Shown here: positions 2,113 through 3,124 of the stretch, piece by piece
Layout of the letters: each line of letters begins with the position of its first letter
Position numbering within the stretch: position 1 is the stretch's first letter
Origin: a virus
Taxonomy: Duplodnaviria; Heunggongvirae; Uroviricota; Caudoviricetes
Reading direction: 5' to 3' (one strand)
Length of the DNA stretch: 6,926 nucleotides
IMG/VR virus record: IMGVR_UViG_2541047435_000017
Notes under the pieces: model-generated
The model's database searches: none
The model's input: only the letters and a program-made list of their open reading frames with translations
Told to the model about the DNA's origin: nothing
Program-made: the position numbers and the translations under genes

Positions 2113-3124
2113 AAAGGTGAAAACCGGCAGTTCATCCAGTAAGTCAGTATTGACCTGGCTTGCTGATATGTGCGGTGCCGATTTGTGTGCATACCCGTCT
2201 GTATCTGCACTGGCAGAAGTAACGGAACTGAACAAAAAGACTGTGCAGGACAGCTTACGACACCTGATGGAGATTGGGTTAATTGTTGATACCGGTGAGA
2301 GAAAAGGCAGAACAAAGCAAATTGTGGTGTACCGACTTATCGGTGTAGAAGAAAGTGTTGCCGAGCCTGAATACACCCAAAAACGGGAGTCTTTAAAGGT
2401 GGGTAAAATTGGTGCTGTTAATAAAAACAGTACCGAAAATGGTTATGTTTCAGCACAAAACAGACCCAAAAACAGAACTCTTAGCTGCATGGAAAATAAC
2501 CAAAGACACCCAAATTTTCCATCAAAGACACCCAAAAACGGATCACGGAACCCAAAGGAACCCAAAGATCTAAACCCCACACATAACGCACGCGAGAGTG
2601 CTCCGACCAGTGAGCAGGAAGTTTTGTCGTTACAGGCAGCCCCCCCTGTATTCCTGTATGGCCTGAGCGAACCCATCGGAAAATTCCCGATGAGCGATAG
2701 CTGGTATCCGTCACGGGATTTTCGACGACGGGCTGCGTTGTGGGGGATGGCTTTGCCGGAGACAGAATTTACACCTGCTGAACTTGCCGCCTTCCGGGAC
2801 TACTGGGCAGCGGAGGGGAAAGTGTTTACGCAGATTCAGTGGGAGCAGAAATTCGCCCGTCACGTAAATCACGTCAGGGCGCAGGTTAAACCAGTCAGCA
2901 AAGGGGTAAACCATGCAGCAGCACCAGGTGGCACCGCATCACGGGCAGTTCAGGAAATTCGGGCAGCACGTGAGCAGTGGGAACGTGAAAACGGATTTAT
3001 CAGCGACGGAAACGGCCTGGAAGCTGTGGGAACTCATGGGGGTGGTTTATTCGAACCGCTGGATCCAGAAGAACGGGGCCGCACCTTCGAAGCTCTGGAT
3101 TGCACAGATTGGCGCGATGACTGA
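2084..3124 (+). CDS. replication initiator (lambda O-like role): N-terminal HTH domain, low-complexity linker, C-terminal DnaT-like domain
   Basis: N-terminus MSIDALRWAKKVKTGSSSSKSVLTWLADMCGADLCAYPSVSALAEVTELNKKTVQDSL is typical of phage replication-protein HTH domains. The C-terminal segment SDSWYPSRDFRRRAALWGMALPETEFTPAELAAFRDYWAAEGKVFTQIQWEQKFARHV resembles the DnaT/primosomal DNA-binding domain. Start chosen at ATG 2084 (SD AGGGGGG at 2074-2080) rather than the TTG at 2009. Stop TGA at 3122-3124. Confidence 0.8.
   Translation: MSIDALRWAKKVKTGSSSSKSVLTWLADMCGADLCAYPSVSALAEVTELNKKTVQDSLRHLMEIGLIVDTGERKGRTKQIVVYRLIGVEESVAEPEYTQKRESLKVGKIGAVNKNSTENGYVSAQNRPKNRTLSCMENNQRHPNFPSKTPKNGSRNPKEPKDLNPTHNARESAPTSEQEVLSLQAAPPVFLYGLSEPIGKFPMSDSWYPSRDFRRRAALWGMALPETEFTPAELAAFRDYWAAEGKVFTQIQWEQKFARHVNHVRAQVKPVSKGVNHAAAPGGTASRAVQEIRAAREQWERENGFISDGNGLEAVGTHGGGLFEPLDPEERGRTFEALDCTDWRDD
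2459..2568. repeat. iteron-like direct repeats (candidate origin of replication) inside the initiator gene
   Basis: ACCCAAA core occurs at 2464, 2508, 2530, 2550 and 2560, giving spacings of 44, 22, 20 and 10 bp (helical phasing). Exact 14-mer CAAAGACACCCAAA occurs at 2501-2514 and 2523-2536. Tandem 10-mer GAACCCAAAG occurs at 2549-2558 and 2559-2568. Confidence 0.5.

Follow-up and report, generated by a model that had tools for sequence, protein, structure and literature searches.

Dyad iterons within the replication initiator gene of a lambdoid Escherichia coli prophage as a probable origin of replication

The window analyzed here, i.e., the whole stretch of 6,926 nucleotides of IMG/VR virus record IMGVR_UViG_2541047435_000017, represents the part of a lambdoid prophage that governs immunity and replication, and this paper concerns a set of DNA repeats located inside its replication initiator gene (positions 2084-3124). 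The original prediction, made from the DNA letters, considered these repeats a candidate prophage origin analogous to the one that phage lambda carries within its O gene, and comparison of homologues lends support to that proposal. The features involved are listed below; scores in bits refer to the matrix of the repeat family that is described further on.

2084-3124, plus strand: initiator gene, 346 amino acids; N-terminal winged helix-turn-helix (HTH; HTH_36-type) domain, linker, and DnaT-like single-stranded DNA-binding domain
2084-2368, plus strand: coding region of the N-terminal DNA-binding domain (amino acids 1-95), presumed to bind the iterons; HTH_36 matches, 35-76% identity to relatives
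2368-2394, plus strand: iteron 1, tgaatacaCCCAAAAACGGgagtcttt; 30.0 bits; frame 1, peptide TQKRE
2394-2420, plus strand: decayed iteron copy, taaaggtgGGTAAAATTGGtgctgtta; less than 8 bits; slot of the second iteron of EPP-1, taaagacaCCCAAAAACGGtgctgtta (1811-1837 of the EPP-1 stretch)
2424-2450, plus strand: weak iteron, aaaacagtACCGAAAATGGttatgttt; 22.7 bits on the plus and 15.8 bits on the minus strand; frame 0, peptide TENGY
2457-2483, plus strand: iteron, aaaacagaCCCAAAAACAGaactctta; 27.2 bits; includes ACCCAAA at 2464
2501-2527, plus strand: half-site copy, caaagacaCCCAAATTTTCcatcaaag; less than 8 bits; includes ACCCAAA at 2508 and belongs to the 14-mer repeat
2523-2549, plus strand: last full iteron, caaagacaCCCAAAAACGGatcacgga; 25.7 bits; includes ACCCAAA at 2530; frame 0, peptide PKNGS
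2547-2566, plus strand: two tandem copies of the 10-mer GGAACCCAAA; includes ACCCAAA at 2550 and 2560; A+C-rich, between the last iteron and the joint
2564-2585, plus strand: conserved 22-mer AAAGATCTAAACCCCACACATA, peptide KDLNPTH; mosaic joint, recognized by alignment and by exact matches across exchanged halves
2672-2893, plus strand: DnaT-like single-stranded DNA-binding domain, amino acids 197-270; Pfam PF17948 and PDB DnaT chains
3117-3578, plus strand: short lambda-P-like helicase loader, 153 amino acids; its ATG overlaps the initiator stop codon

The initiator matches phrog_1032 'replication initiation protein' (E=8.8e-91; E=2.2e-38 for amino acids 1-100 alone), and its N-domain shares 35-76% identity with those of phage and prophage initiators, all of which carry the same repeats. 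The score of the window protein against Pfam HTH_36, 20.9 bits, is under the 25-bit cut-off; at E<=0.1, HTH_36 was matched by seven of the eight scanned proteins (best E=4.4e-13), i.e., by all seven HTH-type initiators including the one of the window, the exception being YdaU of Rac-SA53. Pfam DnaT (PF17948) is found at amino acids 201-267 (E=9e-17), and the PDB DnaT chains 6aep, 4ou6, and 2ru8 match the initiator with E-values from 1e-16 to 1.7e-19, the best match being 6aep_A (1.7e-19). The downstream P-like protein matches Pfam Phage_lambda_P (PF06992; E=1.3e-16) and phrog_109 'P-like helicase loader' (E=1.8e-54), and PGAP annotates a 'replication protein P' at the same coordinates, 3117-3578. 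The HTH_36 N-domain, the DnaT_C domain, and the adjacent P-like gene, the three characteristics of the phage form of DopC/DopE, are all present in the window. The P-like protein covers just positions 32-161 of the 162-position Pfam P model; this same short P also accompanies ydaU of Rac-SA53 and the Scandinavium locus, and the P proteins of EPP-1, phiV10, and GF-2 are full-length (228-261 amino acids).

The repeats were originally recognized through the heptamer ACCCAAA, five copies of which were listed at spacings of 44, 22, 20, and 10 bp. These copies are indeed present at 2464, 2508, 2530, 2550, and 2560, and a sixth one, at 2375, had been overlooked; the six lie within 192 bp, and the heptamer occurs nowhere else in the 6926-bp window on either strand. 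Dinucleotide-preserving shuffles of the window contained 1.22 copies on average and 4 at most, and none of 200 shuffles reached six. Moreover, an exact 14-mer repeated 22 bp apart (CAAAGACACCCAAA at 2501-2514 and 2523-2536) and a tandem 10-mer (GGAACCCAAA at 2547-2556 and 2557-2566) were recovered as described, as was the coincidence of the repeats with DNA encoding the linker between the HTH and DnaT-like domains (peptide PSKTPKNGSRNPKEPKDLNPTH within open reading frame 2084-3124). In this frame the six heptamers are read as TQK, (R)PK, (H)PN, (T)PK, (N)PK, and (E)PK.

The heptamer itself is not the biologically meaningful unit, which is a dyad of 25-27 bp, and among the five copies originally listed just those at 2464 and 2530 sit in full sites. 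An iterated matrix yielded the family consensus taAAcAgTCCCAAAAACGGgACtgTTa, corresponding to a dyad of ~25 bp, AACAGTCCC-AAAAAC-GGGACTGTT, with the core CCCAAAAACGG. When the 27-nucleotide matrix was retrained with the window excluded, using 121 sites that all come from other organisms, exactly four sites reached the threshold of at least 16 bits in the 6.9-kb window, all on the plus strand and all within 2368-2549; shuffled windows peaked at 13.9 bits with the family matrix. The extent of the array, initially given as 2459-2568, therefore had to be revised, as it starts ~90 bp further upstream, with full sites spanning 2368-2549, two of which (cores at 2376 and 2432) are upstream of the initial interval. 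The copies at 2508, 2550, and 2560 score less than 8 bits and are not full sites, the first being a left half-site and the other two lying past the last iteron.

The half-site at 2501-2527 has the same left arm as the iteron that follows it but a mismatched right arm, and the weak iteron at 2424-2450 scores on both strands because of its dyad symmetry. At 2394-2420, the decayed copy has GGTAAAATTGG in place of the EPP-1 core CCCAAAAACGG, and the 40-mer of lowest stability in the gene (start 2393) overlaps with this copy. Among 77 IMG/VR alleles, which are 99-100% identical and are informative on polymorphism, not on divergence, iteron 1 (2368-2394) displays no polymorphism and positions 2524-2560 are invariant. 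The single-stranded DNA fold of 2360-2600 (z = -2.3) did not provide a persuasive structure.

Relatives of the window N-domain were detected by phage tblastn (default E-value limit of 1e-5) in Edwardsiella EPP-1 (58% identity), Burkholderia Bcep176 (43%), E. coli phiV10 (38%), Edwardsiella GF-2 (36%), Acinetobacter LZ35 (35%), and Vibrio H20-type phages (35%), and the same domain is encoded in 20 prophage loci from Scandinavium, Enterobacter, Kluyvera, Plesiomonas, Edwardsiella, Serratia, and Acinetobacter. Each of the 26 further initiators examined that have this N-domain (those of EPP-1, phiV10, Vibrio H20, LZ35, Bcep176, and GF-2, plus the 20 prophage loci) carries two to seven sites with the core CCCAAAAACGG at the boundary between the N-domain and the C-domain. 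Directly after the last site, the sequence GG(g/a)(a/t)cacgga, which resembles lambda GGGGGACACAAAAG, is kept in Enterobacter, Scandinavium, Acinetobacter, Bcep176, and GF-2. Vibrio phage H20 contains four perfect tandem copies of a 24-bp iteron unit (1859-1978 of the H20 stretch), which point to a recent expansion of the array, and copy number within the family is dynamic (2-7). The epsilon15 initiator is without the HTH part, and the records of epsilon15 and phiV10 hold no origin annotation at this place.

The proposed helical phasing stood in part, in that the spacings in the window are near-multiples of 11 bp; across the family phasing is weak, and it is neither robust nor conserved. Family spacings range from 17 to 88 bp and their phase clustering is weak (mean resultant length 0.20-0.38 for periods of 10-11 bp), in data that are not independent. 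The family data give no convincing support to helical phasing, since the spacings are not near whole helical turns and their weak clustering comes from related loci.

The position of the repeats within a coding region raises the alternative that they are a by-product of the repeated PKNG/PENG peptide in a flexible Pro/Lys/Asn/Gly linker, generated by slippage or duplication and kept for the protein only. Such an origin would fit the 27 of 51 spacings that are multiples of three, the four perfect, in-frame 24-bp tandem copies in the Vibrio H20-type phages, which have the look of a recent expansion, and the reading frame of the majority of sites, as 43 of 65 lie in frame 0 and encode P(K/E)NG. 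The same DNA motif also occurs in the other two frames, where it encodes unrelated peptides: core starts are distributed over frames 0, 1, and 2 as 43, 14, and 8 (n=65), with PKNG-, TQKRE-, and VPTTV-like peptides, respectively. Codon usage was evaluated at sites chosen by their peptide alone ([PST][KEN]NG, n=36). Proline is encoded by CCC at all 24 such positions compared with 35 of 189 elsewhere in the same genes; lysine is always AAA (18/18), glutamate always GAA (15/15), asparagine is AAC in 34 of 36 cases, and glycine is never GGC. These synonymous positions are fixed across initiator genes that range from ~37% to 61% G+C. Shuffling of synonymous codons within genes eliminated ~85% of the matches, leaving 15.2 matches to the core pattern compared with 104 observed, i.e., ~sevenfold more than the protein sequence calls for, and in 25 of the 27 genes none of 300 shuffles attained the observed motif count. 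Between the window and its Edwardsiella relatives, third-codon identity is ~0.40 for the N-domain, compared with 0.85-0.93 for the 27-mer of iteron 1 and 1.00 for the 11-nucleotide core. Furthermore, the symmetry of the dyads continues into flanking DNA whose encoded residues vary, the DnaT-type C half also works with other N-domains that come without these repeats, and DopC, a protein of the same domain make-up, is reportedly devoid of them (PMC5509034). The by-product explanation is already largely refuted by the codon tests, and it retains a very small probability. Reading frames, fixed codons, shuffles, and the third-codon contrast jointly indicate that the repeats are held at the DNA level. 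The original prediction had also called for a comparison of homologues, and in this comparison the DNA motif is kept in three frames, without synonymous scrambling, in genes whose synonymous sites are otherwise saturated.

Positions 2368-2585 of the window are read here as the vegetative replication origin, inside the initiator gene, of a paa-carrying, PPompW-like lambdoid prophage of O157-type E. coli, with a probability estimated at about 0.8. The corresponding mechanism is drawn from the anatomy of the locus and the lambda model. Dimers of the N-terminal winged-HTH domain would bind at least four dyad iterons (AACAGTCCC-AAAAAC-GGGACTGTT, with a central A-tract) that are encoded in the presumably disordered linker of the initiator's own gene. 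The resulting nucleoprotein complex would strain the adjoining A-rich segment (2547-2585), which would then melt, and the DnaT-like domain together with the downstream P-like protein would recruit host DnaB to the opened DNA. For 17 of the 27 family genes, the 40-mer of lowest stability in the whole gene begins at the last site or immediately behind it. The DNA that follows the last iteron of the window is strongly skewed toward A and C (AT skew +0.59 to +0.66), and the tandem 10-mer aligns with cggaatctaccaaaggaacctaaagatc of Kluyvera, at a place that is occupied in relatives by an easily melted, lambda-like AT-rich segment. A lambda-P-like loader is encoded downstream of the initiator in the window, EPP-1, phiV10, GF-2, and the Scandinavium, Plesiomonas, and Edwardsiella loci scanned with Pfam; LZ35 has a DnaB-like helicase at this position and Bcep176 a DUF6475 protein, and in Vibrio H20 and three Acinetobacter prophage loci the next gene encodes neither a loader nor a helicase.

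The same binding sites could serve regulation rather than initiation, with the initiator or another phage regulator binding the repeats for autorepression, as a roadblock to rightward transcription, or for copy control through handcuffing, and with the origin located elsewhere. Plasmid iterons are known to double as copy-control and autoregulatory sites, and the segment that follows the iterons in the window is not markedly AT-rich, which would suit such a function. The sites are, however, situated within a coding region at a domain boundary and not in a promoter: no promoter-like sites were found in 2000-3200, and a promoter and terminator scan of 700-3700 gave matches at or under the number expected by chance, none of them in the array. 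Moreover, the matrix finds no further site in the window, and in most relatives the arrangement of an AT-rich segment and a loader gene is that of lambda. A purely regulatory role is therefore considered improbable.

Several observations weigh against the assignment of 2368-2585 as an origin. The segment GGAACCCAAAGGAACCCAAAGATCTAAACCCCACACATA that follows the last iteron in the window is just ~55% A+T as counted from the sequence, and the least stable 40-mer of the window gene lies inside the array, at 2393. Some contribution at the peptide level is possible, given the 43 of 65 sites that lie in frame 0 with PKNG-like peptides. The 27 family genes include many close relatives and represent ~8-10 independent lineages, and enrichment was determined in the very family that had supplied both the matrix and the simple pattern, the window alone being held out. 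In addition, three sites of the window allele are lost or weakened (one lost and two weakened), and the best-matching PPompW prophages have been described as defective (PMC8112680), so that this particular copy may not fire. At position 2474, 66 of the 77 near-identical IMG/VR alleles have a G, which gives a perfect core CCCAAAAACGG, and at 2440 at least 15 of the 77 have a C, which restores ...AAAACGG; the window and O157:H7 strain AC-3 carry an A and a T, respectively, at these positions, and either change weakens the match to the iteron consensus. The weakened sites at 2474 and 2440, the decayed copy at 2394-2420, and the pseudogenes of the prophage suggest that the origin of the window is eroding.

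The repeats end close to a point at which sequence modules appear to be exchanged. Sequences that share the 22-mer at 2564-2585 are unrelated to one another either before it or behind it: Scandinavium and Enterobacter loci with different C-terminal halves carry it unchanged. It was located at ~3020-3045 in Rac-SA53 and at 2014-2035 in both L088 and L089. Similarity to ydaU of Rac-SA53 begins at ~2564, directly past the repeats, and YdaU combines a DUF1376 N-domain with a C half of the window type, without these repeats. In GF-2, the family N-domain and its iterons are joined to a C half with 62% identity to lambda O. The 15-mer core of the joint, TAAACCCCACACATA, is present in at least 120 matching stretches in IMG/VR. 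Among the matches listed, it follows at least three types of N-domain, i.e., the HTH_36 type, the DUF1376 type, and a third type, and nearly all lead into the same DnaT-type C half, the 15-mer joining two C-terminal types. The 22-mer is the crossover point of N- and C-modules.

The third N-domain type (MANAWLRLWHDMPNDPKW..., without a Pfam family) comes with repeats of its own, GTCACGAC, with 5-6 copies of GTCA(C/T)GAC within ~50 bp, followed by two tandem, AT-rich copies of ACAGATAAAGA and directly by the same joint and DnaT-type C half. It is exemplified by IMG/VR contig 2529292882_000002 (3325-3411), with ~30 similar loci among the matches listed. These repeats resemble a further iteron set, distinct from the first one but arranged in an origin of the same layout.

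This mosaic structure could also mean that the repeats and the 22-mer function mainly as a recombination hot-spot, or 'boundary sequence', for the exchange of lambdoid modules, without a role in replication. The break in similarity with Rac-SA53 at ~2564 and the occurrence of TAAACCCCACACATA as the link between at least three types of N-domain and two of C-terminal half would agree with this. Such a function accounts for the 22-mer joint, but not for the type-specific dyad repeats upstream of it, which co-vary with the N-domain and are kept in Vibrio, Acinetobacter, and Burkholderia phages without the joint; besides, exchange at origins is itself expected in lambdoid ori regions. Recombination as the principal function is thus held to be very unlikely. 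With the repeats regarded as origin iterons, the domain swaps point to inheritance of the N-domain and its iterons as one module, as expected for an initiator domain and its binding sites. The AT-rich segment with the joint, the DnaT-like domain, and the P-like gene probably constitute the other module, and the two would recombine at the 22-mer at 2564-2585.

A more tentative extension, which is considered possible though doubtful, is that the origin is bipartite, with iterons that travel with the N-domain and a melting and loading segment (AT-rich repeats plus TAAACCCCACACATA) that is shared and goes with the DnaT-like domain and the P-like loader. It is based on the occurrence of at least three unrelated N-domain types ahead of the same joint, one of them with its own repeats (GTCACGAC). 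If this were true, any crossover at the 22-bp joint would yield a matched, working pair of initiator and origin, and the shared segment, in single-stranded form, would be what the DnaT-like domain recognizes.

An origin within its own initiator gene is the expected arrangement, although it does not seem to have been described so far for initiators of this type. No prior description of iterons of this initiator family was found in the searchable literature, in line with the statement in the original prediction that the element was not known to have been defined. The analysis provides a concrete, testable candidate origin and a family-wide iteron consensus for a widespread, unstudied group of phage initiators with an HTH_36 N-domain and variable C-modules, which pathogenic E. 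coli harbor in prophages and which also occurs in Edwardsiella, Vibrio, Acinetobacter, and Burkholderia phages. For annotation purposes, a simple matrix locates these origins, and the iterons account for the conservation of the linker as DNA in these proteins. The locus also illustrates how the halves of an origin and an initiator can move as a unit through exchange at a short joint. The established view of lambdoid replication is unaffected.

Besides the initiator and loader genes, the window contains the following genes.

866-1273, minus strand: DicA/CI-like repressor
1350-1577: P22-Cro-like gene
1561-2112: YdaT-like gene
3612-4346: DUF1627 gene, 3' of the P-like gene
Downstream of the DUF1627 gene, in this order: fimbrial pseudogene, adhesin gene paa, and hokD/sok

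With 99.7% identity, the initiator gene closely matches genes annotated as 'phage replication protein' in E. coli PPompW prophages, and an identical copy is present in O157:H7 strain AC-3, where PGAP names its product 'DnaT-like ssDNA-binding domain-containing protein'. Although PPompW prophages are called defective, those tested excise upon treatment with mitomycin C (PMC8112680). A palindrome, CCTTAGGAAAATCTAAGG, is situated at 1324-1341 between the divergent repressor and cro-like genes, with an additional CTTAGG at 1298-1303, and is likely an operator. The DUF1627 gene contains an in-frame TAG at 3663-3665 after a start of 17 codons (METVFDALKAMGKATSV*), and PGAP starts the remainder at CTG 3666; the gene is probably nonsense-mutated. 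The region 4512-5964 comprises a frameshifted fimbrial-protein pseudogene, a very AT-rich spacer (5025-5200, up to 85% A+T), and paa, whose product is an adhesin of the AcfC family, representing virulence cargo within the early-right region. The hokD/sok type I toxin-antitoxin locus (6153-6455) consists of Rfam sok at 6153-6302 (103.9 bits), which is far downstream of the array and the sole match of the Rfam scan, and the hok open reading frame at 6300-6455. From 6550 to 6926 the window diverges from the closest O157:H7 genomes, the leftover match being 88% identical; past 6549, ~430 bp of those genomes are swapped for ~50 bp in the window.

Among known replication systems, theta plasmids such as pSC101, R6K, P1, and RK2 have direct repeats that are bound by a winged-helix initiator and that adjoin an AT-rich element. 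Their iterons are located outside the rep gene, usually together with DnaA boxes, whereas the array of the window is inside a coding sequence. A plasmid-type iteron origin was rejected, as all sites are inside open reading frame 2084-3124 and the window contains no match to the DnaA box (TTWTNCACA).

The closest parallels are with lambda, where ori-lambda comprises four ~18-bp dyad iterons and an AT-rich region and is served by the O and P proteins; the lambda iterons, TCCCTCAAAACGAGGGA and variants, are at 39034-39118 within O and are followed by an A-rich stretch. As in lambda, the repeats of the window lie mid-gene between a DNA-binding N-domain and a C-domain, a place that is the same in 26 of 26 relatives; the family sites are dyads with a central A-tract (lambda TCCCTCAAAACGAGGGA compared with family GTCCCAAAAACGGGAC); an easily melted A-rich segment follows the last site in most relatives; and a P-like loader gene is directly downstream in the window. 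Unlike in lambda, the arms of the family sites are 6 bp apart, compared with 9-10 bp in lambda, the C-domain of the window protein is DnaT-like and not that of lambda O, and the P-like protein is short (153 amino acids). Among the aligned relatives, a lambda-O C half occurs in GF-2 only. The claim that the initiator belongs to a different family than lambda O stands at the level of Pfam: the N-domain is HTH_36 and not Phage_rep_O (PF04492), which lambda O matches with E=5.7e-36 and which gave no match at E<=0.1 for the window protein and the scanned relatives. It does not extend to ancestry, as the N-domains are probably remote relatives. Those of the window protein and lambda O both match phrog_678 and phrog_345 at overlapping profile positions, and this bridging, together with published HHpred comparisons (PMC5509034), is the basis for the remote homology; an hhalign comparison of the N-domain alignment with lambda O was not significant (probability 2.8%).

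Phage genomics routinely places the origin at the repeats in the middle of O-like genes. In P22 and phage L, for example, imprecise central repeats of gene 18, a distant O-like gene, have been taken as the origin (Casjens and colleagues; PMC8022706). The inference is of the same kind, and the phage L 11-mer TGTCCAACGGA resembles the family core, but the initiators are of another subfamily and have another partner, which in P22 and L is the DnaB-type helicase gp12. No Salmonella phage records were found in the phage tblastn search with the window N-domain at its E-value limit of 1e-5, and the P22 and L proteins were not detected as relatives.

The C half of the window gene is shared with ydaU of Rac-SA53, with ~90% identical DNA from 2564 on, the 22-bp joint region, and the same short P-like partner, whereas the N-domain of YdaU (DUF1376) is unrelated and its gene has no CCCAAAAACGG repeats. 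The Rac origin, oriJ, has been mentioned without a location (PMC3945230). A ydaU-type C half that is 90.6% identical to the E. coli gene of the window was also encountered in PP818812.1 (9033-9595; Actinobacillus phage vB_Apl-pPE4), a host attribution that is unexpected for so close a match.

Finally, the domain organization of the initiator is that of DopC/DopE of Cellvibrionales and Oceanospirillales, in which an HTH_36 N-domain and a DnaT C-terminal motif are followed by a lambda-P-like protein. HHpred has linked DopC, one of the proteins with HTH_36 and DnaT_C, to lambda O (Brezellec et al. 2017, PMC5509034). Unlike the domesticated, chromosomal DopC, the window gene is mobile and phage-borne and has retained its repeats; dopC is reported to be without iteron-like sequences and not to be located at the chromosomal origin (PMC5509034), and it therefore serves as a natural negative control.

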